From assembly GCA_038063455.1 (NCBI GenBank), contig JBBTVB010000003.1:1714-65713 (forward strand): a stretch of DNA of 64,000 bases. The letters are read 5' to 3'. The position numbers and the translations under genes are program-made. This DNA comes from Patescibacteria group bacterium. Lineage in GTDB: Bacteria; Patescibacteriota; Patescibacteriia; PEXW01. This document shows positions 13,835-30,224 of this stretch, in pieces; the first letter of the stretch is position 1; the number at the start of each line of letters is the position of its first letter. A model generated the notes under the pieces. The model had not been told where the DNA came from. It saw only the letters and a list, made by a program, of their open reading frames with translations, and searched no databases.

Positions 13835-13837
13835 CGT

Positions 13838-15235: not shown

Positions 15236-15238
15236 ATT

Positions 15239-16096
15239 ATGCGCAAGTCTTTCCTGGTCACGCTACTTATACTCGGCGCATGTGCAGCCTTCCCGCGGCC
15301 CACGCACGCGCTGGCAAATTTGCCGCCGATTATCCCCGACTGCGACCAGACTCGATACATTGTACAAGCCAAAGATGGCGTGGTGAGCAGCCCAAGTGGT
15401 CCAATCCCACCCAGGTTCAAAGAAACTATTTCACCTGACGTTTACGGTGAGGATAAGCCCTATCCAGATTCACAATGGAACCTGGTCGGCTACACCACCA
15501 GTGGCAACTGCACGCTTAACGACTTCCTGCAGCTGTTCATCAACTTGTTTGGCTGGATGCTGTACATCATCTCCATCCTGGCTGTTGTTATGTTCTTTAT
15601 CGGTGGGGGCACGCTGCTTACCTCTGCGGGCAGCGAAGAGCGGGTGCGCACCGGCAAGGCTATTCTCACCAATACCGTTATTGGCATTGCCATTGCCTTG
15701 GGCAGCTGGCTGATTATTAACACGGTGTACATTGCACTGCTGCCCGACGACAATACAAAAAATGGAATTGCATACATCATAAAAAACCAGCAACCGTGGT
15801 TTCGGACATCAGCTTCCAAGACCACGGCCGCGTGTTCTGAGCCACCCCAGTACCCATGTAAGGGCGGGGCTGGTGCCGGGGCCGTTCGGCAGGCGCAGGA
15901 CCTACTGTATACCAATGGCTGCTACGTCAGTGCCGGAACCCGTGAGCAAGAAGTGGACGGGAGTTTTGGTCAGAAGACCTTGGCCGCCTGGAAACTCTGG
16001 CAGCAAATAAATGGGCGTCCCACAACTGAAACTCTAACGGGCTATGAGGAGTTCGCTATAAGTTGCAGCACATTTTTTAACAACCTCACCCCATGA
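15239..16096 (+). CDS. TrbC/VirB2-like pilin domain fused to a C-terminal peptidoglycan-binding domain
   Basis: Signal peptide. Two-TM core LFGWMLYIISILAVVMFFIGGGTLLTSAGSEERVRTGKAIL..IGIAIALGSWLIIN resembles the two downstream paralogues. C-terminus VRQAQDLL..NGCY...VDGSFGQKTLAAWKLWQ resembles PG_binding_1. Confidence 0.6.
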   Translation: MRKSFLVTLLILGACAAFPRPTHALANLPPIIPDCDQTRYIVQAKDGVVSSPSGPIPPRFKETISPDVYGEDKPYPDSQWNLVGYTTSGNCTLNDFLQLFINLFGWMLYIISILAVVMFFIGGGTLLTSAGSEERVRTGKAILTNTVIGIAIALGSWLIINTVYIALLPDDNTKNGIAYIIKNQQPWFRTSASKTTAACSEPPQYPCKGGAGAGAVRQAQDLLYTNGCYVSAGTREQEVDGSFGQKTLAAWKLWQQINGRPTTETLTGYEEFAISCSTFFNNLTP

Positions 16097-16467
16097 AGCC
16101 ACAAAACTCCCCCGTGCACACCCAACATCGCATTGGTCTTGCGCTTACCACCGTCGGTCTCTGGCTTATGCCCCTGGCGGCGTTTGCCGATGGTACCGAT
16201 ACGCAACTCACGAATCCCCTTGGCGTCGATGACCCGAAGCTCTTCATTATCCGCATCCTGCGGTACGCCCTGGGTTTTCTGGGTATTGTTGCCCTGATTA
16301 TGATTATCTACGGAGGTTTCCTCATGCTCACGTCGGGCGGGAATGCGGATACGGTCAAACGTGCAAAATCCACACTTATCTGGGCAGCAGCGGGCATGGC
16401 GGTTATATTGGGTAGCTGGTCGATTATTAGCTTTATCTTCAATACTGCAAACGAAGTGGCTAAATAG
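16093..16467 (+). CDS. TrbC/VirB2-like (T4SS-pilin-like) small membrane protein
   Basis: Signal peptide, NPLG, LGFLGIVALIMIIYGGFLMLTSGGNADTVKRAKS, AAAGMAVILGSWSII. This family is common in CPR genomes (from memory). ATGA overlap with the upstream gene. Confidence 0.65.
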   Translation: MKPQNSPVHTQHRIGLALTTVGLWLMPLAAFADGTDTQLTNPLGVDDPKLFIIRILRYALGFLGIVALIMIIYGGFLMLTSGGNADTVKRAKSTLIWAAAGMAVILGSWSIISFIFNTANEVAK

Positions 16468-16469
16468 CG

Positions 16470-16499
16470 TTGACAGTGAGACGAAAATAGTGGTATAGT
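16470..16499 (+). promoter_or_regulatory. Promoter TTGACA-18-TGgTATAGT
   Basis: TTGACA 16470-16475, TG 16491-16492, TATAGT 16494-16499. About 85-nt leader with SD AAGGGGGTG before ATG 16592. Confidence 0.65.
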
Positions 16500-16591
16500 C
16501 TTGGTGTTCCGCAAGGGACAAAATATATACAATCTTGCGCTCGCTCACCTTCGGTGGGCACTGCACAACATTCGAAAGGGGGTGAAACAAC

Positions 16592-16951
16592 ATGAAATTA
16601 AACCGCAAATTGGTCGCTGGTCTCATTTCGGTAGGTGCGTTGGCACTGCCGTTTGCCGCATCGGCACTTAGTTTTGAGGATCCAAGCCTGACGATAGGCG
16701 TCGGTTCTGCTGACCTCAAAGAGACCGTTCTTAATATCATCACTTTCGTGCTCGGCCTGTTAGGCCTCATCGCTGTCATCATGATCCTCTACGGTGGATT
16801 CATCTGGCTGACAGCCGGTGGCAACGAAGACAAGGTTGGTTCTGCCAAGAAGATCATCTCGGCCGCTATCGTGGGCCTCATCGTGATCCTCCTGTCATGG
16901 GCAATCGTCAACTTCGTGGTCAAGAGCACCGTCAACGTGACGGGTGGCTAG
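16592..16951 (+). CDS. TrbC/VirB2-like (T4SS-pilin-like) small membrane protein, third paralogue
   Basis: Signal peptide, LGLLGLIAVIMILYGGFIWLTAGGNEDKVGSAKK, IVGLIVILLSWAIVNF. Confidence 0.65.
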   Translation: MKLNRKLVAGLISVGALALPFAASALSFEDPSLTIGVGSADLKETVLNIITFVLGLLGLIAVIMILYGGFIWLTAGGNEDKVGSAKKIISAAIVGLIVILLSWAIVNFVVKSTVNVTGG

Positions 16952-16975
16952 TTTTACTGACTTTCGAAACCAATG

Positions 16976-17005
16976 AGTCCTGCCATATGGCGGGACTTTT
17001 GGTTT
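16976..17005 (+). terminator. Rho-independent terminator
   Basis: AGTCCTGCC (16976-16984) / GGCGGGACT (16989-16997) with one G-U, loop ATAT, then TTTGGTTT. Confidence 0.65.
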
Positions 17006-17011
17006 ATCCAG

Positions 17012-17017
17012 TACACT
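17012..17017 (+). promoter_or_regulatory. -10 box TACACT, 7 nt before ATG 17025 (leaderless-type)
   Basis: TACACT 17012-17017, TAGCTCC, ATG 17025. Confidence 0.45.
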
Positions 17018-17024
17018 TAGCTCC

Positions 17025-18935
17025 ATGAACCGACGTACTGCTTACCTGACCATTAGTGCCCTTGGTCTAGTCGTCACCGGCTGGACGCTAACACTGGCAA
17101 TCGCAAAAATGCATGCGGGGGCAATGTCCGCGCTCGACCTAGGCATTTACACGCAGGTGGCCTGGCTTACCGCGCATGGCCACTGGTTTGGGCTCACTAT
17201 CCACCCCCACCTCTACCTGGGCGACCATGTGGAGCTCCTGTATGCGGTTGCCGCAATCCCCTTTCGGTTTGGCGCTGGGTCGTTGACGCTCATTGGCCTG
17301 CAGTGCCTTGCTGCCGTTGGCGCAGCGTTTGCGCTTTTTGGTTTTGCACGGCGTTGCCTTTCCGCTGCGATGGCCTGTGGCGTAGCCGCGCTCTTCTTGC
17401 TCAACCCGTTCACGCTTAATGCGCTCAACTTTGAATTCCATGCTGTCTGGTTTGGACTACCCTTTGCCTTCCTCGCTGCCACCGCGTTCGCGGACAAGCG
17501 CATGGGTAAATTCTGGCTCTGGGCGGGTATCATGTTGTTGGCGCGAGAAGACCTGACGCTGCTCTTGGCTGGCTTTGCGCTGCTTGCACTTTTAGAAAAA
17601 CGCGGTCGGGCCTGGTGGCTGTGGCCCGGGCTGGCAGCCATCATTTGGTATGTGGGTGCGGGCTTACTTGCAGGAGCAATGAACGGCGAAGGTTATAAGT
17701 TCCTCAGCTTCTTCCATCCCAGCACGCTCGGTGCTGGTACGGTGTCGAGTGGCCTACTGGGTATCCTCCAGCTTGGTAACCTCCTCGTGCTGGTAGCGCT
17801 CCTACTTTCTGTCCTCCTGCTGCCGCTGCTCGCCTGGCGCTGGCTCGTCTTGCTCGTCCTGCCACTTATTGGCATTGGTCTTGCTGGTATTAGCTCTGGC
17901 GATCTCATTTTGCAAACCCACTACGCCACTTTTTTCTTACCCGGATTATTCTGCGGCGCAGTGGTAGGGTGGCAAACATTATGGCAGCGTCCGCCACAGT
18001 GGCTTGCCAGCCTAGGTAACCACAGCCTGCCCCTTACGCTTGCGCTGATCGGTGTAGTAAGCCTCTACAGCGCGTTAACCTTTGGCCCCACCATTGGGGC
18101 AGTGCGCGCGTGGCAACAGGTTAGCCCTGCCGAAAAATACAAGGCGCGCGAAGCGGTGCGGAATATCTGGGAATACTCACCGCGTGACGCCTCGGTGCTA
18201 GCCGGTTATGCTACTCTGCCCTACTTTGCTGCACGACCGCAGGTGTATGCAGCGCACTATGCTTTCTTGGGCAAGCGCCAATTTAGTGAAAAACCATATC
18301 CTGTGCCTGAAAACTTAGACATGGTAGTTATGGACGCGCAAGATTTTGTAACCTATCAACTACAGTATAGCGACGGCAAGCACCAAGCCGCCTACCAAAG
18401 CGGCGCCGAGCGGTTTCGCGAACTCCTAGCAGCACGAAATTTACGCTTAACAAGTACTTTCGACACGCTGCTGCACTTCACGCGCTTTACAGGTGAAGAC
18501 AAACTCTTACAACTGGTTACCAGCACAACCGGCTCACCATTGAGCGGCGTAGAATTTTCTTTACAGAGCGTTTCGACAACGCTAGTGGTAGACCCAGACA
18601 CGCAACTTGCCACACTCCAACTCCGCGGCCAGGTTGGCAACCCAGCACTTCCAAACGTGCAGGCCCGGCTTCGCTGGCTAGATGCAAAAGGCAGAACGCT
18701 GGAAACGCGGCTGCTACCGCTTGGCTACGGACTCATGCCGACAACAAGCTGGAAAACGGATGAGGTGGTAACGACCATCTTCACCCTCATGACGCCAAAA
18801 AATGCGGCGAGTGCTAAGGTGGAGGCAATTGTGCCACACGGCCACCTGCAGCTTAACGGCTGGCGCGTACCGATGATGGTGCTTGATGAAGAGACGCGGG
18901 TGGTAAGCCAGCGTTTGAGCTTACCGCTGCAGTAG
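17025..18935 (+). CDS. DUF2079-family polytopic membrane protein (GT-C-like)
   Basis: N-terminal SALDLGIYTQVAWLTAHGHWFGLTIHPHLYLGDHVEL resembles the DUF2079 signature. About 12 TM segments plus a soluble C-terminal domain. Confidence 0.65.
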   Translation: MNRRTAYLTISALGLVVTGWTLTLAIAKMHAGAMSALDLGIYTQVAWLTAHGHWFGLTIHPHLYLGDHVELLYAVAAIPFRFGAGSLTLIGLQCLAAVGAAFALFGFARRCLSAAMACGVAALFLLNPFTLNALNFEFHAVWFGLPFAFLAATAFADKRMGKFWLWAGIMLLAREDLTLLLAGFALLALLEKRGRAWWLWPGLAAIIWYVGAGLLAGAMNGEGYKFLSFFHPSTLGAGTVSSGLLGILQLGNLLVLVALLLSVLLLPLLAWRWLVLLVLPLIGIGLAGISSGDLILQTHYATFFLPGLFCGAVVGWQTLWQRPPQWLASLGNHSLPLTLALIGVVSLYSALTFGPTIGAVRAWQQVSPAEKYKAREAVRNIWEYSPRDASVLAGYATLPYFAARPQVYAAHYAFLGKRQFSEKPYPVPENLDMVVMDAQDFVTYQLQYSDGKHQAAYQSGAERFRELLAARNLRLTSTFDTLLHFTRFTGEDKLLQLVTSTTGSPLSGVEFSLQSVSTTLVVDPDTQLATLQLRGQVGNPALPNVQARLRWLDAKGRTLETRLLPLGYGLMPTTSWKTDEVVTTIFTLMTPKNAASAKVEAIVPHGHLQLNGWRVPMMVLDEETRVVSQRLSLPLQ

Positions 18936-18936
18936 C

Positions 18937-20571
18937 CTACTGGCCGGACCCTGCCACTACGTATACCAGCGCATCAGTATTTTTGTAGGCTACGCGGAGC
19001 GGGAGAGAAAATGTTTGTAGCATTGCAAATGCGGCAACATCATCCTGCCGAATGACAACATGGGTAATGCGACTTTCACGTAAGAATGCTAGTCGATCGA
19101 TAGCAGCATTTGGGGTAAAAAATGCTTGTACCGAAACGGTTTTCGCCTTGCTCTTCGCCGTAAGATCAGCGTGGCCGAGAAAAACAGTCCGGCCAGCCCA
19201 ACCTGGGAGCAGGTTGCTGTCGTTGGGGCGCGCAAGCACTACCGCCTCGACATCGGAAGTATCGCGCACCCACTGGAATGCTTGTACAACGCCAGTGGGC
19301 ATGGAAACTGGTTCGCGGCCAAAGGCTGCATAGTACGCATCTTTTACCAGATGTGTCAGGCTTGTGATGCCCATGAGAATAATGACGAGTGTTATGCCGG
19401 TTGCAATTACTGCGCCTTCAACCAGCGCGCCGCGCTTTCGTGCCCGCTGCCAAAAAGCTTGCACGGCAACCGCACCCAGTACCACCAGGGCAATGAACCA
19501 ACCTTCCATCATCCGGCGCTGGTATGGAAAATAGGGCAAGTACAGCAGGAGTGGCACTACTCCCGCCCACGTAACCACTACAAAAGTGCGAGTGGTTCCG
19601 GTGCGGAGAGCTCGTGGAAAAGCCATAAAGGCCAAAACGCAAGGAATGAGATACGCTGGCAAGTACCACCACACGGCCGGGGATAATGTTACATTTTGCG
19701 CGGCCCAGCCAGCCAGGCCAGGCTGTATCGCAAAAATCGTTCGGAGGGTTCCCAAGGCCAAAACCGCAGGTAGCAACACCAGTACGAGTAGCCTGAGGTA
19801 GGAGCGAGCCCGTTGTACAGACCACGTGCGATCTCCCAGCACGCGGACAAAAAAATGCCCCGCGAGTACCGCGGCAATAAGGAACACATCATACGGATGG
19901 ATGATAGCAAGGATAAGCAGCAGGCCGCTGGCAAACCATGCCGCCACAGTATCTTGCTGGTCATAGGCGCGCTCAACGAGCATGAAAACCGCAAGAATAC
20001 CGCACAAACCCATGAGAAACAGCGGATTATGATACAACGATAAGAATGGAAATGCCTCGGGTACCCACAAGTCAATGGGGATAGCCAGGGTACGTACCGC
20101 ATGCGCTATATCCCCTATTGGCACAAATGCACCAAAACCCGTACCAAAACTTAGCACGGTCATGGCCACCATACGCACACGGTGGGCGGGGAGCATCCCG
20201 GCAATAAAATGGTACGCCAAGATTAAAAAAAGGATGCTAAAACCAACGCGCGTAAGTTGATACGCAACAATATTGGATACATGAAAAAGCTTTGCGAATT
20301 GACCAACCGCATACCATTGTGGGGTAAGCACTGCGGCAACCGGTTGGGCTTCGCTAGAAAATAGATTACGGCTAAAAACCTGCCCTTGACGGCCCTGTTC
20401 AATGAAAGAGTAGTACACAGAAATATCACCAGGCGTGAGCCGGTGAATGCCGGTGTACGTTCGATGCGCCGGGGTTGCAAGCCAGCCAAAAACGTAGGGC
20501 GCACTGGTAACCAAAACTACTGCGGTTATAAGCCAAATCAAAAACCTGACCTCCGCGCGCTGCAACTTCAT
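18937..20571 (-). CDS. Polytopic membrane protein, GT-C-fold glycosyltransferase-like
   Basis: 544 aa, more than 10 TM segments plus a C-terminal soluble domain. 4-nt start/stop overlap with the upstream GT2. Family not recognised precisely. Confidence 0.5.
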   Translation of the reverse strand: MKLQRAEVRFLIWLITAVVLVTSAPYVFGWLATPAHRTYTGIHRLTPGDISVYYSFIEQGRQGQVFSRNLFSSEAQPVAAVLTPQWYAVGQFAKLFHVSNIVAYQLTRVGFSILFLILAYHFIAGMLPAHRVRMVAMTVLSFGTGFGAFVPIGDIAHAVRTLAIPIDLWVPEAFPFLSLYHNPLFLMGLCGILAVFMLVERAYDQQDTVAAWFASGLLLILAIIHPYDVFLIAAVLAGHFFVRVLGDRTWSVQRARSYLRLLVLVLLPAVLALGTLRTIFAIQPGLAGWAAQNVTLSPAVWWYLPAYLIPCVLAFMAFPRALRTGTTRTFVVVTWAGVVPLLLYLPYFPYQRRMMEGWFIALVVLGAVAVQAFWQRARKRGALVEGAVIATGITLVIILMGITSLTHLVKDAYYAAFGREPVSMPTGVVQAFQWVRDTSDVEAVVLARPNDSNLLPGWAGRTVFLGHADLTAKSKAKTVSVQAFFTPNAAIDRLAFLRESRITHVVIRQDDVAAFAMLQTFSLPLRVAYKNTDALVYVVAGSGQ

Positions 20572-21299
20572 AAACGACCTCGCAGCATTGCTACCCGCAA
20601 ACGAAAAAGCTGGATAAGGTAATGCGTAATGGTCCGCAACACATGCACTTTACTTTTTCGCAATGCTGGCCGCGTTTCTACCCACGAAACAGGCAGCGCA
20701 CGTACCCGGAAACCCCGTCGTTCAGCCTGCAGCAGTAGCTCGGTATCGAAAAACCAGCCGTCGTCACGGACGGACGGCAACAATTGTACGGCGACTGCTT
20801 TTCGAATCGCCTTAAAACCACACTGTGCATCGCGCGTTTTCAATTGTATGCAAAGCCTAGTAAGAAAATTATAGCCCACCGACGTCACGCTGCGCATGAA
20901 TGAGCGTTGAATCTTTGCGCCAGTAGCATACCGCGAGCCTACCGCGATGTCCGCCGCCCCACTGGCAATCATGTCAACCAATGGGGCAACGGCATCAAGC
21001 GCAACCGCCAAATCTACATCCATGTACAAGCTAATATCAAAATCCATTGTATTCCAAGCAGTACGCAAAGCTATGCCGCGACCTTTCTGAGGAATCCGCA
21101 GGTACTGCAAGCCGGGCAGCTCTTGCTGGAGAGCCACGACCACGGCAGAAGTATTATCTGTTGAAGCATTATCAACAACCACTAACGACCAATCAAATGC
21201 CTGCAGAGCTGCCGATGCATAGCCCATTACCGTGCGCACGCTCCAGGGTAAGATGGTCGCTTCGTTGTATGCGGGAAGTATAAGCGTGAGTTTGGTCAT
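20568..21299 (-). CDS. GT2 glycosyltransferase (polyprenyl-phosphate sugar synthase-like)
   Basis: LILPAYNEA, VVVDNASTDNT, DVDLA (DxD), CGFKA, FFDTELL. Confidence 0.85.
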   Translation of the reverse strand: MTKLTLILPAYNEATILPWSVRTVMGYASAALQAFDWSLVVVDNASTDNTSAVVVALQQELPGLQYLRIPQKGRGIALRTAWNTMDFDISLYMDVDLAVALDAVAPLVDMIASGAADIAVGSRYATGAKIQRSFMRSVTSVGYNFLTRLCIQLKTRDAQCGFKAIRKAVAVQLLPSVRDDGWFFDTELLLQAERRGFRVRALPVSWVETRPALRKSKVHVLRTITHYLIQLFRLRVAMLRGRL

Positions 21300-22564
21300 G
21301 TAACAGCGCGTCGACGAGCCATCCGAGTGTACCAGAAAACTGTGGCAGCAAAAATGGCTACGTTAAGCATAGCGACTATGAGTGACCCGCCCCAAAAGTT
21401 ATCCAGGCGCGTACCCTCATGTTGCGTGAGAATAATAAACACCACCACAAGATTCCAAAGAAATGTACATGAAAGTGCTACGTACAGCCAGCGGGCGGGA
21501 CGAAAAGCCGGCAGCGCAGGGATGAGTAGTGCAAAAAATGGAAAGAGGTAGCGCTCGTGCATCTGGGTTGGAAGCATAAAAAATGCAAAGGCGAGAAATG
21601 CCGCGGCTAGCCACAGCCCTTCAGTGGCCTTTGCTCGTGATCGAAACCAAACTGCAAAAGCCACGGCACTAAAAAATAGCCCTGCCCCAATAAGCACCAT
21701 GGGCATACCGAAGAGTGAGGCAACATCGGTACGGTACGTCCAATACCCGCCAGAAAAAAACCACCAAAGATTAAATGCGTTCGCCGACGGCACAGGGTTG
21801 GTATCTTTTGCCTGAGCAATAACCTGGAATACTTGGTTGGTCTTACCAGTTAAAACAAAAGGCAAACATAACATGAACGCCGTCCCTAGCCCGGCTCCAA
21901 GACTCCGTATGAGGGTTCGCCAATATGGCCAACGATGAAATATGGCATACGCCAAAAGTGGAGCGAGTGCTAGGCTTTGTAATTTAATAAAAAATGCAGC
22001 TGTAAATGCCACCACCGCCCATGTTAACTTACGTTGCGTCAGCAGCCAGACACATAACACCATGAAGAAGGTATTAATGGCATCTACTTGGCCCCAAGCC
22101 GCAGTCGTAAACAACATTGCGGGGTTGGCTGCATACAGTACCGCGGCCCCCAGTGCCCAACTTTCGCCCCAGCGCCTTCGAACAATGTGGGCTAGGAGAA
22201 GTATTGTTGCCAGCTCAAAGAGTATTGCGGGTGTTTTAAAAATAATTGAGGATAAAGGGGTGCCTACCGCGGTTGCTGGTTCAAACAACGCATGTACTTG
22301 TGCAAGGACGTGCAACGTCATCAAGTAAGGCGGAAGGTAGTTAGGGAGCGCAATAATTCTATAGTCAGGATGTTCAATCGGGTGCTCGTATACCTTGGTT
22401 AGGCCGTACGTGCTTGCGCTATAGCCCCATAACTGGAAAAGTAATGTGTCGCCACGCGACTCGATGGATGTTTGTGGGGCGATGACAAAACGAATTGCGG
22501 CCGCCCCAAAAATAATGAAGGTGAGAATGCGGCGGTAGTTTAGCACTACTGAGGGTTTAGTCAT
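21296..22564 (-). CDS. GT-C-like membrane mannosyltransferase-type protein (DUF2029/PMT_2-like)
   Basis: 422 aa, about 11 TM segments. The first loop contains D/E residues and NYLPPYLM. Translationally coupled within the operon. Confidence 0.5.
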   Translation of the reverse strand: MTKPSVVLNYRRILTFIIFGAAAIRFVIAPQTSIESRGDTLLFQLWGYSASTYGLTKVYEHPIEHPDYRIIALPNYLPPYLMTLHVLAQVHALFEPATAVGTPLSSIIFKTPAILFELATILLLAHIVRRRWGESWALGAAVLYAANPAMLFTTAAWGQVDAINTFFMVLCVWLLTQRKLTWAVVAFTAAFFIKLQSLALAPLLAYAIFHRWPYWRTLIRSLGAGLGTAFMLCLPFVLTGKTNQVFQVIAQAKDTNPVPSANAFNLWWFFSGGYWTYRTDVASLFGMPMVLIGAGLFFSAVAFAVWFRSRAKATEGLWLAAAFLAFAFFMLPTQMHERYLFPFFALLIPALPAFRPARWLYVALSCTFLWNLVVVFIILTQHEGTRLDNFWGGSLIVAMLNVAIFAATVFWYTRMARRRAVT

Positions 22565-24116
22565 TGCGAGAGATTACCCAAGCCTTATGGGGATTTGAAA
22601 AGCCGCGAAGAGGTATGCGGCCCAATACATTGGTCCCAATATACTGGCCTGTAGATACTTCGGCGAAGACGGCGCCCGCCCGCGACGAGGGACACTGGGC
22701 TCGCTTGCAAAAGTGGTAACGGCCAAGACGCGTAGTACGGTACCAATTGATGCTCGTAATTTCGAAATCATGATCTTTCGCAAGTGTGGTTGGATTCCAT
22801 GGGCGCAAAAGCATGAAGAATATTTGCGGCTGATTCAAACCGTCGTCAACAATCCACACCTCATTTGCGGGCGTACGCTCTAGCCGCGCAACCAATGTGT
22901 GAATCTCCGGGGCAAAAAAAATATTTGCCTGCCCAAAACCTAAGCCAAAAAAATTCGATGGCTGAACAAATACTACCAAGCCAGCGGCTCCAAGGGCAAG
23001 CCCTACCGCAGCAGCACTAATTTGCTGCCACCGGAAACGCAACCACGTAGTCACTAGCGATTTGCTGCTGCGCACAATGCTCCAGGTACCTACGATAAAT
23101 AGTACGCTTAAAAGCCCACTTGGTCGTATTTGGTGAGGATTTGCATCGGTAAGCATGGCGGGTAAAAGCGCCGCCACCAACCAACTCAGAAGCATGACGT
23201 GAAACCAGCGCTCCGTGCCAGCTGGGCGGGCGGAGAAAAAGAAAAGGGGTATGCCAAAAAAGAAGAGCAAAAAATCAATGGGTCCAACGGAAATTTGTCC
23301 TAGGCCCCAATGCAAAAGATTGAAGTAGGCTAAAAAATTATTGCCAAGCTGACGCAGGCCCGGCACAACGCCGTTTTGAAAAATTGAAATCTCCTGAAAA
23401 TGTCCTGCCCCCAATTGGTTGGCAGAAAGTGAAAGCAGTGGAATAAGTAACACGGCAACAACCCCAAGCGCAACCCAAGTTGAGGGGTGGCGCCAGTGGA
23501 TGCGTCGAAAAGTGAGGCTAACTGTCAGAATCGATGCGAGTGGAAAAAACAACCTGCCTGCGCCGTAGCCAAAAAAACCCGCGCCCCAGGCCAGCACCGC
23601 CAGCGGCATAAGCCACGGGCGTCGGTCCACTGCAGAAAAGTATGCCACGGCACCTAGGCTAAACAGCGTTGGGAGCCACACCGCTTCGTGGCCCAGACGG
23701 CTTAGTGTAAGGTGCCAAGGCGAAACTGCAAGTGCAGCGCCCGCAAGTAAGCCAATATTCCAACTGCCACAAAGTCGCTTGCCCAAAAGAATCGTTGCCC
23801 AGACCAGCAGCACCCCGGCGAGGGCGGAAGGCAAACGAGTTGCAACTAGCCCGGGGCCAAAAATTGCCGTTGTTGGTATTGCGGCATATGCAGAAATAGC
23901 CGAAGCGTTATCATTTTCATGGCTAAATGCTTCTAGGGTAAGTGGCCACGGGTGGCCATGCTGGTCACGCCCGGTGGTAAGCAAACTATACGCTTCGTAG
24001 CCGCGCTCGGCTTCGTCTTGATTTATGCCGTACGGCACGCGCTCTAGGGCAACAATGCGCAACAGGCTTGCAATAAAGAGTACCGCAATAAAAAAAATAC
24101 GCTGGCGCGGTGTCAT
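22557..24116 (-). CDS. ArnT/PMT-like (GT39/GT83-type) membrane glycosyltransferase
   Basis: Track ORF 22557-24191. LLRIVALERVPYGINQDEAERGYEAYSLLTTGRDQHGHPWPL is the typical first-loop motif. Start set at ATG 24116, which forms an ATGA overlap with the upstream GT2 stop. Confidence 0.7.
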   Translation of the reverse strand: MTPRQRIFFIAVLFIASLLRIVALERVPYGINQDEAERGYEAYSLLTTGRDQHGHPWPLTLEAFSHENDNASAISAYAAIPTTAIFGPGLVATRLPSALAGVLLVWATILLGKRLCGSWNIGLLAGAALAVSPWHLTLSRLGHEAVWLPTLFSLGAVAYFSAVDRRPWLMPLAVLAWGAGFFGYGAGRLFFPLASILTVSLTFRRIHWRHPSTWVALGVVAVLLIPLLSLSANQLGAGHFQEISIFQNGVVPGLRQLGNNFLAYFNLLHWGLGQISVGPIDFLLFFFGIPLFFFSARPAGTERWFHVMLLSWLVAALLPAMLTDANPHQIRPSGLLSVLFIVGTWSIVRSSKSLVTTWLRFRWQQISAAAVGLALGAAGLVVFVQPSNFFGLGFGQANIFFAPEIHTLVARLERTPANEVWIVDDGLNQPQIFFMLLRPWNPTTLAKDHDFEITSINWYRTTRLGRYHFCKRAQCPSSRAGAVFAEVSTGQYIGTNVLGRIPLRGFSNPHKAWVISRND

Positions 24117-24910
24117 ACTGTCGCCGAAACAGTCGAACGTGAGAACTTTTGACTCTTGCGTAGCTTTACCCGCGACATAAGGTATTCGCACAATGCAAAA
24201 ATGATACTTATACCGTAGCGTACGCCAGCCCGAAAACCAACAGTATGCGCGTCTTTAAAGTACCGCGTGGGTATAGGAATTTCACGTATGCGGAAGCCGT
24301 GGACTTTACATTGGATAATAAACTCCGTGTCAAAAACAAAACTATTGCTATTGTGCTGAAATGGTAAAGTTTGTAGCACCTGGCGGCTGTAGGCGCGGAA
24401 GCCTGAATGGTACTCACTCAAGCGCAGCCCGAGAACGCTGTTCTCTAGTAACGTAAGTCCAATATTTGCAACCTGCTTCCACCACGGCATGCCGCCGCGG
24501 CGCGCACCACCTTTCCATAACATGCGTGAGCCAAAAACTACATCGGCCTCACCACGTAAAATCGGTAAAACCATTTCTGGCACCAGGACGGGGTCGTACT
24601 GGTGGTCGGGGTGAATCATGATGACCACATCGGCCTCTCGCCGCAACGCCTCGGTGTAGCACGTTTTTTGGTTGCCACCATAGCCGGTATTGTGTGCGTG
24701 GACGATAGGCGTTAGTCCCAAGCGTCGAGCCTCTGCGACAGTACCGTCGGGGCTCGCATCGTCCACCAAAACCACTTCGTCTACCCAGTCGCTCGGAATG
24801 TCATTTAAGGTTTTCTCAAGTGTGCGCTCTGCCTCGTATGCAGGTAAAACCGCAATGATTCGGTACTTTTTTCGGACTTCTTGAAGGTTCCACATGTTCT
24901 TAGGGTACAC
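24113..24910 (-). CDS. GT2 glycosyltransferase (polyprenyl-phosphate sugar synthase-like)
   Basis: AVLPAYEAE, VLVDDASPDGT, HPDHQYDP, SGFRAY, FDTEFI. GTG at 24910 is preceded by TACAAT (minus, 24919-24924) 8 nt upstream. ATG 24895 is an alternative start. Confidence 0.85.
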   Translation of the reverse strand: MYPKNMWNLQEVRKKYRIIAVLPAYEAERTLEKTLNDIPSDWVDEVVLVDDASPDGTVAEARRLGLTPIVHAHNTGYGGNQKTCYTEALRREADVVIMIHPDHQYDPVLVPEMVLPILRGEADVVFGSRMLWKGGARRGGMPWWKQVANIGLTLLENSVLGLRLSEYHSGFRAYSRQVLQTLPFQHNSNSFVFDTEFIIQCKVHGFRIREIPIPTRYFKDAHTVGFRAGVRYGISIIFALCEYLMSRVKLRKSQKFSRSTVSATV

Positions 24911-25071
24911 TACTCAACATTGTATGGGCAACGCGTTTGGCAACATTACTGCGAGCATCGCTGCCAGGCGGCCTCAACACTTTTTTGATCTAACGTACTA
25001 AAAAAATACAAATATTCTGTACCTGATTTTTTTAGCTACCAGTATCGAGCATCGAGAAGGTGCGGAACGCA

Positions 25072-25707
25072 TTATTGAATATTGACAGTTTTCAATTGTG
25101 TCTTTTCCAGCAGCAGCATGGTCCACGGGATTGGCTGCTTACCCGTCTGCACCACAAATGCCTGGCTTACAAACCGCCGAAAGCCCCAGGGCGTCCAGTG
25201 GTTAATGTGGCCTGGTGTATTGCCCCAGCCCCGCACGTACGTGCCCCGCGCCAGGTTCATAACCCGCCAGAGCGGCTCGTTGGGCACGCTAATTATGGCC
25301 CATTTCTTCGTGACGCGTGCCAATTCTTTCAGGGCGTCCAACGGGCGGTCCAAGTGCTCCAGCACTTCCAGAGCAAAAACAAGATCCACACTCGCGGCTT
25401 TGCGCTGCAAATCATAAATGGACTCGACGCTGCACTGCACCGTGGGGTTGCCCTGCTTCGTAAGTTCAACCAATGCCGGGGTGACATCGGAGGCGTGGAG
25501 CTGCGCGCTTGGCAAAAATGTTCGCAGTTTCTGGGTGGAATAGCCTTCACCACACCCAACTTCTAAGGCGCTCGTGACGTCGGCGGGAATCAGGTGGTGC
25601 AAGGTCGCAAAAAAATTCCGCAAGAACATTTGCATAATTGGGTTCTTCGATTCGTACTTGCCGCGGAAGTCTTCTTCCGGTTTGGTTATGTGGGGCGCGT
25701 GCATCAT
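25072..25707 (-). CDS. Class I SAM-dependent methyltransferase
   Basis: ALEVGCGEGYST, DLVFALEVLEHL. 4-nt overlap with the upstream membrane-protein gene. Confidence 0.85.
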   Translation of the reverse strand: MMHAPHITKPEEDFRGKYESKNPIMQMFLRNFFATLHHLIPADVTSALEVGCGEGYSTQKLRTFLPSAQLHASDVTPALVELTKQGNPTVQCSVESIYDLQRKAASVDLVFALEVLEHLDRPLDALKELARVTKKWAIISVPNEPLWRVMNLARGTYVRGWGNTPGHINHWTPWGFRRFVSQAFVVQTGKQPIPWTMLLLEKTQLKTVNIQ

Positions 25708-27308
25708 TGGGCAGCGGGGTTATGCCACGAGTAAATCCAAACTTCGGTGTCTTCGTAGGCCAGCATGACGCCAGGGACGGTGCGGACATTCACGTTCATG
25801 GCCGTGTGATCTTTCTCAACCAGAATCCACTTTGTTTTGAAGAGGTCAAAGGCTTCGGCCAGATTTTCCCGCCGCTCGCCCAGGGTGGTCTTGGCCCAAG
25901 CCCAGTAGCGCTCTTGGTCTTGGCGGTAGAGGAACGTGGGGTCCAAGCCGGCAATGTAGGCGTTGGTCGTGTCGTAGTAGAAGAGTACCGGAAAGTCGTC
26001 CCAGTCGCTATGGAACACCACGTCACCTTTTTGCGAGTGCTCGGCCAGCCACGTCGCGGAGGCCTGGAAGTGCGTGGCATTCACGCCCGACGTTAAGTTG
26101 CGGTAATTGGTCCGCTGGTCGCGGGCGATAATGTACGGCACGCTCACGATGACGTAGAGCGCAACCAACACCGTGACGCTGCGTCGACGCTGCCAAGCTT
26201 CCCGCAGAAAACTCTTGATGGTTTGCCAGTCGTGCCGGTCAAGCACGTCGGCCAGGAGCGTTGCGGCTGCCAGGGCAATGAACGGCACGGCGTACTCCAC
26301 GTAGCGTCGTGACTTCAGGGTGAAGGCGGTAAAAAATGCTGCCAGCACAACCATGGTCCAGCTGCGGCTGGTGGTCCGCCGCACGCGCACCAACGCCAGG
26401 ACAAAAGCGATAACAAACGGCACAATAACCACAACATTATTCCCAATAAACTCCGCGACTTTATACGGGTACCACTCCCCGCCCACGCCAATGACGTTAC
26501 GGTAATTGACCACGCCAATCTGGATGGCCTGCTCCCACAAAAAATTGAAGGTGTTGGGGAAGAATGGATTGGCAACCGTGCCCACGCCCACGCCAGCCAG
26601 CACGCACAAGAACATCTGAAGCGGTCGGTACTTTTTTAAACCTCGCCATTTCCACCATGGCGCGTGCAGGGCGTCGGTCATCCGAGTGCGCCAATTCCAC
26701 CAGTGCTGGATGAGATCAAAAGCCATGCTCACGGCCAGGTAGATGCCGGCGGCGGCAACCAGCACGAAAAAACCACCGTAGAGCAACACGAAAAACCAGG
26801 CGAGAAAGAAGCTGGCGATACGCTTCCCGTTGAAAATCAAAAATATGCCAAGAATAAGTGTGGCCAAGGAAAGGCTGGGCGCTTTAGCCAAACTCATCCG
26901 AAAGGTAAACGGCGTGGCTGCCAGCAAGACCAGGCCCCACGCCCAGGCATGTTTGACGCCATACCGTATGAGGAACCACACCGCGGTAGTAATAAGCAAG
27001 GCGGCAAAAAAGACGGTGGCGAGCTTGATACCCACCAAGGGATCCATGAGGGTCACAAATGGCACGAGCAGAGCATGATACAGCCAGTGCTGATCAATGT
27101 AGTGTTGGCCGAGCGTCGTATAGGGTAGCCAGGGAAATTCCCGCACTGCGCCCTGTTCCGCCGTCAGCACGCCGAGCCGCGCATGGTAGAACGAGTCGGG
27201 ATCGGCAAAAATCGGATTTGACTGCAAGGCAAAAAACACGCCGAAAGCAACGATGAAGGTGGCAAACAACGTAAGGACGGTGGCGTGCTCACGCCAGGGG
27301 TTGGTCAT
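25704..27308 (-). CDS. Polytopic membrane protein, GT-C-fold glycosyltransferase-like
   Basis: 534 aa, more than 10 TM segments. First-loop motif ADPDSFYHARL resembles the acidic loop of GT-C enzymes. C-terminal soluble domain. Confidence 0.5.
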   Translation of the reverse strand: MTNPWREHATVLTLFATFIVAFGVFFALQSNPIFADPDSFYHARLGVLTAEQGAVREFPWLPYTTLGQHYIDQHWLYHALLVPFVTLMDPLVGIKLATVFFAALLITTAVWFLIRYGVKHAWAWGLVLLAATPFTFRMSLAKAPSLSLATLILGIFLIFNGKRIASFFLAWFFVLLYGGFFVLVAAAGIYLAVSMAFDLIQHWWNWRTRMTDALHAPWWKWRGLKKYRPLQMFLCVLAGVGVGTVANPFFPNTFNFLWEQAIQIGVVNYRNVIGVGGEWYPYKVAEFIGNNVVVIVPFVIAFVLALVRVRRTTSRSWTMVVLAAFFTAFTLKSRRYVEYAVPFIALAAATLLADVLDRHDWQTIKSFLREAWQRRRSVTVLVALYVIVSVPYIIARDQRTNYRNLTSGVNATHFQASATWLAEHSQKGDVVFHSDWDDFPVLFYYDTTNAYIAGLDPTFLYRQDQERYWAWAKTTLGERRENLAEAFDLFKTKWILVEKDHTAMNVNVRTVPGVMLAYEDTEVWIYSWHNPAAQ

Positions 27309-27314
27309 GTAGGT

Positions 27315-27320
27315 AGTATA
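27315..27320 (-). promoter_or_regulatory. -10 box TATACT, 6 nt before ATG 27308 (leaderless-type)
   Basis: Forward AGTATA 27315-27320 reads TATACT on the minus strand. ACCTAC, then ATG (A at 27308). Confidence 0.45.
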
Positions 27321-27334
27321 GCGGTTTTCATGCG

Positions 27335-27500
27335 ACTCCTCCTCTCCTGCGAGAGGAGAGGAGAGGACGTTCTAAAATCCCCCTCTCCCCTTGCGGGAGA
27401 GGGTCTCGGGGAGAGGGGTTAAAAAACTGTTCCCCCTCTCGGAGCGAGAAACGAGAACGAAGCACCTCCGGACCAAGCATGGGCATCCGGAGGCGCATTC
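27335..27500. repeat. Cluster of four polypyrimidine/polypurine (CTCC/GGAG) hairpins
   Basis: TCCTCTCCT/AGGAGAGGA (27339-27361 region); CCCTCTCCC (27381-27389) / GGGAGAGGG (27395-27403); CCCCTCTC/GAGAGGGG alternatives around 27411-27440; GCACCTCCGGA/TCCGGAGGCGC (27461-27495 region). Confidence 0.6.
27373..27403 (-). terminator. Probable terminator of the PGI/PMI gene
   Basis: On the minus strand CCCTCTCCC-GCAA-GGGAGAGGG is followed by GGATTTT (forward AAAA 27374-27377). Confidence 0.55.
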
Positions 27501-27517
27501 GTTTTTGTATTGTGAGG

Positions 27518-28579
27518 TTATGTTCCGAGCTTCTGCTTGAAGTAGTTTACCCAGTGAATCTCGGAGGGGTTTACATGATGGCGTAAGCCTACACCCAGCG
27601 TCAGCGCGCCGCCAAGCACCAACGCTTCAATGGCTTGCGCTAAGGCTGTGCGGCCAGTGAGCCGGATCGAGATGACCTTAGCGCCATTCTTCTGGACCAC
27701 ATCCGCAGTGAGACGGAAACGTTTTTGAATGCGCGGACTGTAGAGCGCGGATTGCAACATGAGGAAGGTTGTCTGCTTAACGTTCGCTTTGGGGTTACCC
27801 AAACCTTCCATCAGGTGGTGGTTGAGTTCGGGAATGGCAAAAAATATTGCAACTGATTTCGCAGTTTCGTTAAACTGGTTGGCCATCGCATGCGCGGCGC
27901 CCACCAAGTGCTCGGCCGCAGTGACATAGACTGCGCGGCCTTGCAGTGCAGCACTCAAACCGACAATTGGACTTGTAGCTGACCGCAAGTCGGTGCGGCG
28001 GATAGTCCGCTCAGCAACTTTCAGGGCGTCATCCAAAATTGTTGGTGATATATCGAGTAGGCCCATCTTGCGGAGCATGCCCAGCAACCCAAACACCGCG
28101 TACCCTAAGCCAAGGCGCGGCTGCTTGGAGGGGTTTTCAATAGGGTTAAAGATATAGGCCGGGAGCTTATTCGTCTTTGCAATGCGTCCCAGCTGCCCAC
28201 CCGCAGCAATCACTGCCACGCGCGCACCAGATTTCTTGGCCGGCTGCCAGGCGGCAATGGTCTCTTCTGTGGTGCCAGAATAGCTAGCTAAAATAACCAG
28301 GGTCCGCTTGCCGACCCAGGCTGGCAATTGATAGTCGTTGATAATAACCAAGGGTACACGAAGTTCCTGACTGCAGGCCGCTTGAATAATGTGCGCGCCC
28401 AAAGCGCTCCCGCCCATGCCGGCCAGGAGAATCGTATCTACTTTGCCGCGCAATGCTGGGAACTTCAACGCGCGAATGTCACTAACCGCCTGGTGCCCTT
28501 GGCGCGCAAAACGCTCCACCGACCCGAACACATCTTGCGGGTCGAGCTGTTTGAGTAACGCAGGGAAGGGTGTAGGCAT
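27518..28579 (-). CDS. Bifunctional phosphoglucose/phosphomannose isomerase (SIS-domain, archaeal-type PGI/PMI)
   Basis: LLAGMGGSALGA, ILASYSGTTEET, second SIS half, C-terminal LGVGLRHHVNP. Confidence 0.75.
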   Translation of the reverse strand: MPTPFPALLKQLDPQDVFGSVERFARQGHQAVSDIRALKFPALRGKVDTILLAGMGGSALGAHIIQAACSQELRVPLVIINDYQLPAWVGKRTLVILASYSGTTEETIAAWQPAKKSGARVAVIAAGGQLGRIAKTNKLPAYIFNPIENPSKQPRLGLGYAVFGLLGMLRKMGLLDISPTILDDALKVAERTIRRTDLRSATSPIVGLSAALQGRAVYVTAAEHLVGAAHAMANQFNETAKSVAIFFAIPELNHHLMEGLGNPKANVKQTTFLMLQSALYSPRIQKRFRLTADVVQKNGAKVISIRLTGRTALAQAIEALVLGGALTLGVGLRHHVNPSEIHWVNYFKQKLGT

Positions 28580-28691
28580 TTCGGTTAGATTTTTTGTCTG
28601 CTCCCACCCTAGCGCGGGTTAAAAAATTATGCAAGTAGATAAGTTGTTTATTTTTTAAAATATTACAGAGTCCATATCCTATAAACAGATT

Positions 28692-28902
28692 TTGGGGGTC
28701 TGGGGGTTCGAAAAGCGGACCTTTGGTAGACGAAGTTTAGCCTACCTACTCTGGGCACGCGTTTGAGAACCCCCAGCGGTCTTTAGGCGCCACCCTTTCT
28801 GACGGCAGAAAGGGTGGCATAAACGTGACCGACCGATAGAAACAGAACAAAAATCCCTTCGTCGTTTCGTACAAACATGTAAATCCCCAAACGAGTTCGG
28901 GG
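28692..28902 (+). repeat. Structured intergenic element, copy B (paralogue of 12723-12879)
   Basis: Stem CTGGGGGTTC (28700-28709) / GAACCCCCAG (28767-28776). Copy-specific perfect 13-bp hairpin 28789-28818. Conserved core 28821-28885 with TTCGTCGTTTCG (28858-28869). CCCC(28885-28888)...GGGG(28899-28902). Confidence 0.6.
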
Positions 28903-28919
28903 TAACAGCGCAGAATGCA

Positions 28920-28948
28920 TTGACCAATGCGCCTTCATATTTTATAAT
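28920..28948 (+). promoter_or_regulatory. yebC promoter TTGACC-17-TATAAT
   Basis: TTGACC 28920-28925, 17-nt spacer, TATAAT 28943-28948. SD GGGAGGA at 28960-28966. Confidence 0.65.
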
Positions 28949-28981
28949 TCATGCACTTTGGGAGGAATTTTTGCTGTTGTT

Positions 28982-29704: not shown

Positions 29705-30224
29705 ATCCCGCCCGGCATCGCCTGCGGCTTCAGCCGTTGGCGGACGGGCGCGAACGATCCTGGGTATTGACCCGGGCTTTGGTCGGGTTGGCTGGGGCGT
29801 TATCCGTGAGACCAATGGGAAGCTGTCGGCCGTAGACTACGGCATCATCGAAACCCCAGCCGGCACGCCGTTTGCAGAGCGGATTCAGAAAATTTTCACA
29901 AAAATCTGCCAACTTATAGCGCGGCACCAGCCAGACCTGGGCGGCGTGGAGCGGCTCTTCTTCTCTAGCAACACCACCACAGCCATGAAAGTGAGCGAGG
30001 CCCGCGGGGTTATCCTGCTTGCACTGGCTCAGGCAAAAATTCCCGTGCACGAATGCACCCCGCAAGCCGTCAAACAAACCCTCTCCAGTTACGGCCGCGC
30101 CGACAAAGCCCAAGTCCAACGTATGGTTAAAGTCCTACTCAACCTCAAAGACATTCCCAAGCCCGACGACATTGCGGATGCGCTGGCGATTGCAGTGACT
30201 GCCGCGGTAAGCGAAAAACTATGA
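29673..30224 (+). CDS. ruvC: Crossover junction endodeoxyribonuclease RuvC (start uncertain)
   Basis: ILGIDPGFGRVGWGVI, VERLFF, ADALAIA. The nearest canonical start is ATG 29673, 32 nt inside yebC. There is no ATG/GTG/TTG between it and the ILGIDPG motif. Confidence 0.85.
   Translation: MSPQSGRTRSKSRPASPAASAVGGRARTILGIDPGFGRVGWGVIRETNGKLSAVDYGIIETPAGTPFAERIQKIFTKICQLIARHQPDLGGVERLFFSSNTTTAMKVSEARGVILLALAQAKIPVHECTPQAVKQTLSSYGRADKAQVQRMVKVLLNLKDIPKPDDIADALAIAVTAAVSEKL

Follow-up and report, generated by a model that had tools for sequence, protein, structure and literature searches.

A Patescibacteria locus that joins VirB2-like pilin genes to GT-C glycosyltransferases and an exchangeable gene cassette, probably for glycosylation outside the cytoplasmic membrane

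In Pseudomonas aeruginosa, the gene for a polytopic glycosyltransferase with a large outer C-terminal domain lies directly after the pilin gene, as in pilA-tfpO (group I), in which TfpO modifies the C-terminal Ser of the pilin, and in pilA-tfpW (group IV), in which Ser/Thr of the pilin is modified with a sugar from a polyprenyl-phosphate pathway. TfpW, a 646-aa GT-C protein with a large periplasmic C-terminal domain, is encoded immediately downstream of pilA, and tfpW is required for glycosylation of the pilin with D-arabinofuranose from the decaprenyl-phosphate pathway (10.1101/2020.04.19.049825). Here, we describe a locus with a related layout in a 64,000-nucleotide stretch of DNA from an uncultured, ultrasmall Patescibacteria group bacterium (assembly GCA_038063455.1, contig JBBTVB010000003.1, positions 1,714 to 65,713; the whole stretch is referred to as the window). 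In this locus, an operon for GalU, a solute-binding protein (SBP) and VirB2-like pilins precedes the gene for a DUF2079 membrane protein, which converges on minus-strand genes for four more GT-C-type proteins (G1, G2, PMT and G3), two GT2 glycosyltransferases (GT2a and GT2b) and a methyltransferase (MT) (Table 1). We conclude that the region 12959-28579 probably forms a locus in two parts that serves glycosylation beyond the cytoplasmic membrane by way of polyprenyl-phosphate sugars, with the pilin and SBP envelope proteins as the preferred acceptor.

The DUF2079 protein is similar in size to TfpW (636 versus 646 aa), has a C-terminal domain of ~200 aa beyond the Pfam domain and is likewise encoded directly after a pilin gene. 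Unlike the pilins of Pseudomonas, which are type IV pilins of a diderm, those encoded here are two-helix proteins of the VirB2/TrbC-like, type IV secretion system (T4SS) type in a Patescibacterium. Moreover, the enzymes belong to other families (DUF2079, G1 and G3), and there are at least five GT-C genes instead of one.

A second resemblance is to actinobacteria, in which a small GT2 supplies several GT-C enzymes of the PMT_2 and GT87/MptA_B families in a monoderm-type envelope, with Ppm1 and Pmt acting in protein O-mannosylation and PimE/MptA/MptB in the synthesis of lipomannan; we know of no dedicated flippase gene for these pathways. Unlike the actinobacterial polyprenyl-phosphate-mannose pathways (compare PMC12041525, PMC13223929), the locus described here is clustered in operons beside a pilin array, includes two GT-C families without described relatives and exchanges its cassette between close relatives; moreover, the presence of GalU suggests that its sugar is probably glucose rather than mannose. 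Finally, three-component systems (GtrA/GtrB/GtrC; GT136) consist of a synthase, a flippase and a GT-C enzyme, modify an exported surface glycan and drive antigenic diversity (PMC11127046). The pairing of a polyprenyl-phosphate sugar synthase with a GT-C enzyme is shared with the Gtr systems; unlike in these systems, a flippase gene is absent, there are five GT-C and two GT2 genes instead of one of each, and there is no O-antigen context.

On the pilin side, arrays of 2-11 divergent tandem PF18895/PF04956 pilin genes have been described in Patescibacteria (10.1101/2025.01.22.634366), and VirB2-like pilins are essential in Ca. Southlakia, where their genes lie inside a T4SS cluster (PMC10633639). 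Unlike the described arrays, which were analysed relative to virB4, the array in the window is embedded between GalU-SBP and GT-C genes. In the searchable literature, we found no description of GT-C islands, DUF2079 or GalU-SBP beside such arrays, and nothing relevant on DUF2079, on Patescibacteria GT-C enzymes or on a Southlakia glycosyltransferase. In total, the principle that GT2 polyprenyl-phosphate sugar synthases feed GT-C transferases is known; new are two unannotated GT-C families, the coupling to VirB2-like arrays, GalU and an orphan SBP, and the swappable cassette.

A preliminary description of the window had proposed a ten-kb glycosylation island of eight genes at 17025-27308. The coordinates and strands that it gave for the eight open reading frames (ORFs) are correct, and public gene calls on the Patescibacteria metagenome-assembled genome GCA_964364675.1 (contig CAYIMS010000004.1) agree with these ORFs. 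We take all eight to be real genes rather than chance ORFs, because each has many homologs and lies in a conserved gene order. All minus-strand junctions in both operons overlap, as had been noted: read from the sequence, GT2b/PMT, G2/GT2a, GT2a/G1 and G3/MT are 4-nt ATGA overlaps and PMT/G2 is an 8-nt overlap. Similarly, the convergence of DUF2079 and G1 with 1 nt of spacing was confirmed, with the stops at 18935 and 18937. For PMT, the ATG at 24116 is also the start in the public call (519 aa), and the longest ORF begins at a GTG at 24191. For GT2b, public calls place the start at 24895 (260 aa) and not at the GTG at 24910. Upstream of G3, a -10-like TATACT ends 6 nt before the ATG and a Shine-Dalgarno sequence is absent; the sequence thus fits the suggestion that the G3-MT operon may be leaderless. 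MT, which has no transmembrane (TM) segment by hydropathy, is translationally coupled to G3, and the G3-MT pair is kept in relatives at 40-86% G3 identity. The ten-kb block is real as a run of genes; it is not a single fixed unit but consists of conserved anchors and a swappable five-gene cassette, and the actual unit is larger than the limits first given, extending from GalU (12959) to G3 and the adjacent phosphoglucose/phosphomannose isomerase-like gene PGI (27308/28579).

The count of five GT-C-like polytopic proteins is supported by fold, Pfam, profile links and acidic residues in loop 1. In a hydropathy scan, all five proteins were polytopic, within a range of ~8-13 TM helices. In single-sequence and profile searches, G1 and G3 had no Pfam, NCBIfam or PDB sequence match, a result that could be taken to favour transporters or other non-glycosyltransferase membrane proteins. 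However, Foldseek placed the AlphaFold models of both proteins (G1, pLDDT 88 and pTM 0.88; G3, pLDDT 92.8 and pTM 0.92), which show ~13 long helices followed by a small C-terminal alpha/beta domain, among GT-C-fold proteins only. The top 28 PDB matches of G1 and the top 38 of G3 all have the GT-C fold and nearly all are glycosyltransferases, including STT3, AglB, PglB, DPY19, AftA, ArnT, AftD and ALG12, with E values of 1e-10 to 1e-5 and TM-scores of 0.5-0.66 (TMq among the best matches); transporters in these lists appear only at E ~0.1 (0.08 or worse) and with TM-scores of ~0.1. Moreover, the loop-1 acidic residues are conserved in G1 and G3, and both genes are translationally coupled to GT2 or methyltransferase genes. 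A transporter identity of G1 and G3 was rejected on the fold evidence, and we regard it as effectively refuted.

The structural comparison covered G1 and G3, and DUF2079, G2 and PMT were placed by Pfam and hhalign. PMT lies above the PF13231 gathering score (26.1; E 2.5e-8), while G2 lies just above that of ALG3 (23.6) and below that of GT87 (18.6 bits versus 25; E 1.6e-3); among the orthologs of G2 in related loci (numbered with the prefix L), that in L007 has a precomputed GT87 match and that in L003 a weak ALG3 match. In hhalign comparisons, G2 was linked to PMT_2 (88.9%, E 2.4e-6, 305 columns), DUF2079 to the PMT_2 family (85.8%, E 5.3e-6), and G1 to G3 (96.4%) across the last helices and the common small C-terminal domain; DUF2079 and G3 gave 19% with a small DUF2079 alignment and 41% with more sequences. 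On these profile links, we regard G1 as a distant paralog of G3. Searches of PDB sequences with G1, G3, G2, DUF2079 and PMT returned nothing meaningful (nanobodies, ISG15 and polyphenol oxidase at chance level), and with relaxed Pfam thresholds, members of the G1 and G3 families showed only scattered weak matches to Dpy19, DUF6541, DUF6798, Glyco_transf_22 and DUF7649. The G3 family is very large, with 3,438 representative clusters at 50% identity in a profile search, the best 150 of which were listed.

In GT-C enzymes, the catalytic or metal-binding carboxylates sit in the first outer loop, after TM1. The preliminary description had pointed to acidic first-loop motifs, and ortholog alignments revealed invariant acidic residues just after TM1 in all five proteins: D38, D67 and E70 in DUF2079, D49 in G1, E35/D39 in G2, the 'DE' motif D34-E35 in loop 1 of PMT, which is invariant in 7 orthologs and paralogs, and D35-P-D37 in G3, which is invariant in the family alignment. 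From their position after TM1, these residues are predicted to lie outside the membrane. Altogether, GT-C identity is strongly supported for G1, G3 and PMT, and there is good evidence for it in G2 and DUF2079.

Among the best fold matches of G1 and G3 are the oligosaccharyltransferases (OSTs) STT3, AglB and PglB (GT66). G3, and perhaps G1, could accordingly be a highly divergent OST and the locus a bacterial counterpart of archaeal Agl N-glycosylation, in which GalU would act as AglF, the GT2s as AglJ/AglD, the methyltransferase as AglP and G3 as AglB, and N-x-S/T sequences such as NVT in pil3 would be the target. Like AglB-S2, G3 has a small outer domain: its C-terminal domain matches the C-terminal globular domain of AglB-S2 (3vu0; TMt 0.50, probability 0.98-0.99). 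G3 also has a D-x-D in loop 1, which is common to other GT-C families and not diagnostic. Directly behind its last TM helix, at roughly the place of WWDYG in OSTs, G3 has an invariant HSDWD[DE]FP, which includes D434-W435-D436. Moreover, AglJ is the best NCBIfam match of both GT2s, and 16 of 24 pil3-type tails contain N-x-S/T. By contrast, a match to STT3 (PF02516) was not detected for G1, G3 or 67 family members scanned at E values up to 1; WWDYG itself is absent, and G1 has no equivalent of HSDWD[DE]FP. Neither the full-length profile nor that of the G3 C-terminal domain found an OST in PDB, and there is no link to OSTs at the level of sequence. DPY19, AftA, ArnT and AftD reach the same TM-scores as STT3, so that the fold match is generic; one third of the orthologs have D, Q or T in place of the tail Asn; and the block lacks cytoplasmic glycosyltransferases or a phosphoglycosyl transferase for building a lipid-PP-oligosaccharide. 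In total, with no WWDYG, no STT3 match and a generic fold match, G3 is not supported as an OST, and we consider this explanation of the locus very improbable. N-linked modification of the pil3 tail was downgraded as the Asn is not conserved.

Both GT2s resemble polyprenyl-phosphate sugar synthases of the DPM1/ArnC/AglJ type, in line with their initial classification as DPM1/ArnC-like. The best PDB match of both is the P. furiosus Dol-P-Man synthase 5mlz (7.6e-15 for GT2a, for which ArnC is next, and 1.5e-8 for GT2b), and the best NCBIfam models are AglJ (7.8e-20 for GT2b), dolichyl-phosphate hexose transferase and PpgS. That DPMS/ArnC-like GT2s are encoded together with the GT-C enzymes suggests that the latter use a lipid-phosphate-linked sugar donor. 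GalU matches its NCBIfam model at equivalog level (347.2 bits versus a cutoff of 326.8) and supplies UDP-glucose. The best NCBIfam matches of PGI are PGI/PMI models, below their cutoffs, consistent with a role in the supply of hexose phosphate. Outside the block, a DedA/VTT-domain protein may, tentatively, recycle polyprenyl phosphate after GT-C transfer: transport of polyprenyl phosphate has been reported for the DedA family (10.1101/2022.02.03.479048). A DedA homolog is also encoded near the block in L007.

Relatives found via G1, G3 and DUF2079 share one architecture, in which GalU, SBP, the pilin array and DUF2079 converge on a run of GT-C and GT2 genes followed by G3, with or without MT, and by PGI, YebC and RuvC. 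The anchors are GalU, SBP, the VirB2-like array and DUF2079 at the left and G3, MT and PGI at the right. L020 has no gene between DUF2079 and G3, a 26% identical DUF2079 lying right beside G3; L011 has two such genes, L010 three, the window five, and L003, L007 and L014 at least seven. These variable interior genes are drawn from few families (G1 paralogs, PMT_2, MptA_B/GT87 and GT2), and in the window their order is GT2b-PMT-G2-GT2a-G1. GC content at third codon positions is 0.49-0.55 in the cassette versus 0.60-0.73 in DUF2079, MT, G3, PGI, GalU, dnaA and PBP1, and it shifts exactly at the DUF2079/G1 and GT2b/MT junctions. Moreover, in the closest relative (L011, equal to L024), which stems from Hainich H51 groundwater, the anchors are highly similar to those in the window, with identities of 90% for GalU, 83% for SBP, 87% for pil3 and 75% for DUF2079 on the left side and 90% for MT, 86% for G3 and 83% for PGI on the right side; its cassette consists of only two G1-family genes, 28% identical to G1, and contains no GT2a, G2, PMT or GT2b. 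More distant relatives (DUF2079 at 57-62%) have the cassette of the window, with GT2b at 80-83%. In total, the pattern is one of cassette replacement at a fixed site, as in surface-polysaccharide loci. Such turnover would cause the structure of a surface glycan to differ between close relatives.

Distant G1 homologs (24-28%) also occur in a different, polysaccharide-type context: in L005 and L006, a G1-like gene lies together with genes for an unannotated protein of 606-716 aa, the GT-C-like YfhO and a Bac_transf phosphoglycosyl transferase, and the block adjoins Tad-pilus-type genes (RcpC, CpaE-like ATPase).

The three upstream genes first described as pilin-like encode pilins, all of them above the gathering score of PF18895 (T4SS_pilin) and with a signal peptide and a two-TM hairpin by hydropathy and alignments; they are of the VirB2/TrbC type and not type IV pilins. 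Their co-localisation with the GT-C genes holds from both directions and is kept down to 26% DUF2079 identity. Seen from DUF2079, a pilin array lies directly upstream on the same strand in all loci with upstream sequence except L017. Seen from the pilins, a metagenome scan seeded with pil3 gave 80 loci (40-87% identity), which were annotated with family hidden Markov models built here. In 35 of these loci, the sequence continues for 3 kb or more past the array; a GT-C gene lies at most 500 nt from the array end in 20 of the 35 and anywhere in the locus in 23, i.e. in 23 of 27 if eight lone pilins are left aside. In 21 of 33 related loci, GalU and SBP immediately precede the array. The arrays span 1 to ~10 genes, and where DUF2079 is missing, the array faces G3 directly or follows GT2-G3. 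Two outcomes had been named beforehand as speaking against the proposal, namely that the large membrane proteins belong to transporter or other non-glycosyltransferase families and that the block is not co-localised with pilin-like genes in any relative; both were examined and neither was found.

Arrays of ~9-10 tandem VirB2-like genes behind GalU-SBP occur in L055, L061/L063, L074, L091, L096 and L099, and those in L055, L061/L063 and L099 end in a DUF2079 gene facing G1/GT2; array size is as variable as the cassette.

The array and the GT-C genes could nevertheless be functionally unlinked, their adjacency being a gene order inherited in one Patescibacteria lineage beside housekeeping genes (PGI, YebC, RuvC). 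All loci with the full architecture are from related Patescibacteria, many of them labelled Kerfeldbacteria, the housekeeping genes belong to the conserved order, 8 of the 35 pil3-like loci are lone pilins without a GT-C neighbour, and the essential pilins of Ca. Southlakia are encoded inside a T4SS cluster (PMC10633639). However, the outer flanks differ, with ADH-MsrB beyond GalU in the window and genes for ceramidase and Asp decarboxylase in L003; the interior is repeatedly rearranged while the array still abuts DUF2079 or G3, even at 26% DUF2079 identity; and in L079, L083 and L103, GT2 and G3 have been relocated to the far side of the array and are co-directional with it. We therefore consider it unlikely that the two sets of genes are functionally unlinked.

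As acceptor, the envelope proteins of the co-conserved operon are the preferred candidates, above all the Thr/Ser/Asn-rich C-terminal tail of pil3. In relatives in which the identity of DUF2079 falls to 42-75%, the pil3 protein keeps 79-87%, and its tail KSTVNVTGG should lie outside and close to the membrane, given the positive loop inside. The last 10 residues contain a mean of 3.6 Ser/Thr in pilins encoded beside DUF2079 versus 2.0 in 197 other array members. As a sign of an acceptor, the tail is suggestive but not diagnostic. Lone pil3-like genes without a GT-C neighbour have the same tail, and the idea of using a Ser/Thr-rich tail as a test of DUF2079 dependence was dropped for this reason.

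The same enzymology could also serve a non-protein acceptor, i.e. a lipoglycan or a wall-linked polysaccharide, with the array a neighbour only as a set of fellow envelope genes. Comparable pathways are those for mycobacterial lipomannan/lipoarabinomannan (Ppm1 with PimE, MptA, MptB and Emb) and for Gram-positive teichoic-acid glycosylation (CsbB with YfhO). G2 and several cassette genes of relatives match MptA_B/GT87, the genes of distant G1 homologs have those of YfhO and the Bac_transf phosphoglycosyl transferase as neighbours and no pilin genes close by, the presence of up to nine or more GT-C genes suggests many different linkages, and the variability of the cassette resembles that of polysaccharide loci; moreover, teichoic acids are known to be glycosylated by pairs of a GT2 and a GT-C enzyme (PMC5836110). 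A non-protein acceptor would not account, however, for the place of GalU and an orphan SBP at the head of the pilin operon, nor for an array that stays next to DUF2079 or G3 over 26-87% sequence divergence; in addition, by Pfam, the block lacks an initiating phosphoglycosyl transferase, a polymerase, a ligase and an LCP-type attachment enzyme. We rate a locus with such an acceptor as a possibility that deserves serious consideration, although not as the one we favour; compared directly as acceptors, a lipoglycan or wall glycan is nearly as likely as the pilin and SBP proteins.

Several observations weigh against our preferred interpretation, i.e. extracytoplasmic glycosylation of pilin/SBP envelope proteins. 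The GT2s fall far short of the equivalog cutoffs that would indicate their donor and lipid specificity (AglJ, 51-71 bits versus 325; PpgS, 42-60 versus 370). Flippases of the GtrA, MATE and Wzx families were not detected by Pfam among the window ORFs of at least 150 aa and all called genes at 10243-29499, and the block has no space for an extra gene between its overlapping junctions. Sets of 5-10 GT-C enzymes that include MptA_B/GT87-like members are typical, too, of the assembly of lipoglycans or wall glycans. The N-x-S/T of the pil3-type tails gives way to D, Q or T at the Asn in those without it, and the Ser/Thr-rich tail is a trait of the whole subfamily. Finally, the related loci are from one broad clade and not phylogenetically independent, and the hidden Markov models were built from that clade.

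In the mechanism that we propose under this preferred interpretation, GalU and PGI/PMI would make activated hexose (UDP-glucose), and the two GT2s would attach single sugars to polyprenyl phosphate on the inner side of the membrane. The lipid-linked sugars would then be flipped outward by some protein not encoded in the block, and DUF2079, G1, G2, PMT_2 and G3 would each transfer sugars to the outside acceptor via their loop-1 acidic residues. The G3-coupled methyltransferase probably modifies the sugar or the lipid-linked intermediate before flipping. DUF2079 would correspond in its role to TfpW/TfpO, which are encoded beside pilA in Pseudomonas, and extension of the glycan would fall to the cassette enzymes. 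Directly observed in this scheme are gene content and synteny, folds and motifs, and the turnover of the cassette, while donor sugar, flipping step, role of the methyltransferase and acceptor are what we infer from them. A more specific version, in which the locus is a dedicated Patescibacteria system that glycosylates VirB2-like, T4SS-type pilins via the DUF2079 and G3 families, with a hot-swappable GT-C/GT2 cassette that sets the structure of the glycan, is put forward tentatively, as we hold it to be doubtful in this full form.

Much of the diversity of bacteria lies within the Patescibacteria, of which those in culture are attached to host cells; to our knowledge, almost nothing is known about how they build and vary their surface. 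Glycosylation in Patescibacteria has been called 'unexplored' (PMC11623550). The locus points to an undescribed way in which these host-dependent bacteria may vary their surface. It adds two GT-C-fold families without a Pfam or NCBIfam model, one of them with >3,000 clusters at 50% identity, as well as a reproducible genomic link between VirB2-like arrays, which are essential in one cultivated species, and extracytoplasmic glycosyltransferases. Moreover, cassette replacement at a fixed site is a signature of selection for surface variation, and hexose-modified C-terminal peptides of pil3 are a concrete hypothesis for groundwater metaproteomes. If the pilins are glycosylated, strain-specific sugar coats on appendage and envelope proteins would be shown to hosts and phages; this would be the first glycosylation of T4SS-type pilins, and a surface variation comparable to that of the O-antigen or to type IV pilin glycan switching. 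If the acceptor is instead a lipoglycan, the locus would still be the first candidate pathway for such a polymer in Patescibacteria.

Table 1. Genes and sequence elements of the locus and its surroundings, with positions in the window
Feature	Position	Strand	Basis or remark
DedA/VTT-domain membrane protein	7504-8130	+	PF09335 2.4e-24; 9 kb off, outside the block
CCTCTCC...GGAGAGG hairpin with T-run, left edge of the module	12628-12645	.	probably ADH terminator
Sigma-70-like promoter, GalU-SBP-pil1-pil2 operon	12903-12931	+	11/12; consensus match only
GalU, UTP-glucose-1-phosphate uridylyltransferase	12959-13834	+	TIGR01099 equivalog; first gene of the pilin operon
SBP, membrane-anchored orphan solute-binding protein, carbohydrate type	13838-15235	+	Pfam SBP_bac_8, SBP_bac_1
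pil1, VirB2-like hairpin and C-terminal Cys-containing PG_binding_1	15239-16096	+	PF18895 32.8 bits vs 26.6
pil2, VirB2/TrbC-like pilin, signal peptide and two TM helices	16093-16467	+	PF18895 35.0 bits, plus TrbC
Sigma-70-like promoter, strong, dedicated to pil3	16470-16499	+	11/12 and extended TG; consensus match only
pil3, most conserved VirB2-like pilin, tail KSTVNVTGG	16592-16951	+	PF18895 47.7 bits
Terminator-like hairpin between pil3 and DUF2079	16975-16998	+	26 nt before DUF2079
DUF2079 membrane protein, GT-C-like, anchor 1	17025-18935	+	Pfam 5.7e-36
G1, GT-C-fold enzyme, cassette gene	18937-20571	-	AlphaFold and Foldseek; small family without annotation
GT2a, polyprenyl-phosphate sugar synthase-type GT2, cassette gene	20568-21299	-	Pfam GT2 8.5e-22
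G2, ALG3/GT87/MptA_B-like GT-C, cassette gene	21296-22564	-	ALG3 24.5 bits
PMT, PMT_2 (ArnT/Pmt-type) GT-C, cassette gene	22557-24116	-	PF13231 34.7 bits
GT2b, like GT2a a polyprenyl-phosphate sugar synthase-type GT2; at the head of the cassette operon	24113-24910	-	Pfam GT2 1.6e-18
MT, soluble class I S-adenosylmethionine-dependent methyltransferase	25072-25707	-	Methyltransf_11 1.1e-15
G3, GT-C-fold enzyme, anchor 2	25704-27308	-	AlphaFold and Foldseek; very large unannotated Patescibacteria family
Pair of CCTCTCC...GGAGAGG hairpins at the right edge of the module, between G3 and PGI	27341-27402 (27341-27366, 27382-27402)	.	
PGI, bifunctional phosphoglucose/phosphomannose isomerase-like	27518-28579	-	Pfam bact-PGI_C; adjoins G3 in relatives

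The SBP has weak NCBIfam matches to carbohydrate-binding SBPs and one N-terminal hydrophobic segment, and no ABC permease or ATPase gene lies adjacent to it. The architecture of pil1 is kept in its orthologs, and this pilin-like membrane protein may have a tether to peptidoglycan. A VirB4-like ATPase was not detected among the ORFs of at least 150 aa in the 64-kb window, and a T4SS near the array was rejected on this ground. Partial read-through at the hairpin between pil3 and DUF2079 could give high expression of the pilin and low expression of the enzyme.

Hairpins of the type CCTCTCC...GGAGAGG occur only three times in the 64 kb, all at the outer edges of the module (0 expected in shuffles). 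Their placement is striking; they are probably the terminators of the upstream ADH gene and of PGI. The possibility that the module is a mobile island bounded by these hairpins was downgraded, and terminators are the more likely explanation, because the flanking order PGI-YebC-RuvC is conserved in relatives.

Just beyond RuvC, the window contains a second carbohydrate cluster (30221-39103). It includes four GT4 glycosyltransferases (at 30221, 33959, 36109 and 37158), an S6PP-like HAD phosphatase (31499-32596, minus strand), a GH100/GDE_C-like glycosidase (32638-34068, minus strand), an APH-type kinase (35122) and a GalT-like uridylyltransferase (38189). At the corresponding position, L009 and L010 have GT4, GT5, GH57 and APH genes.

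Elsewhere in the window, a 620-aa protein without a Pfam or NCBIfam match is encoded at 40311-42173 (plus strand), immediately upstream of a class A penicillin-binding protein (42234-44885). The Rfam family AsdA, an antisense RNA of dnaA mRNA, matches at 47553-47633 (plus strand; 57.7 bits versus a gathering score of 52) inside dnaA (46728-48098, minus strand); this match is probably due to the conserved coding sequence of dnaA and not to a genuine antisense RNA in the phylum. At 51953-53743 (plus strand), beyond dnaA and 25 kb from the array, lies the gene for a PilB-like type II/IV secretion ATPase of the type IV pilus machinery (T2SSE 9.5e-128). Finally, towards the left end of the window lie genes for an unusually long (499 aa) sigma-70-like protein, of which only regions 3 and 4 are matched (3487-4986, minus strand), and for a PIF1-family helicase with an HTH_40 domain (5760-7481, plus strand).

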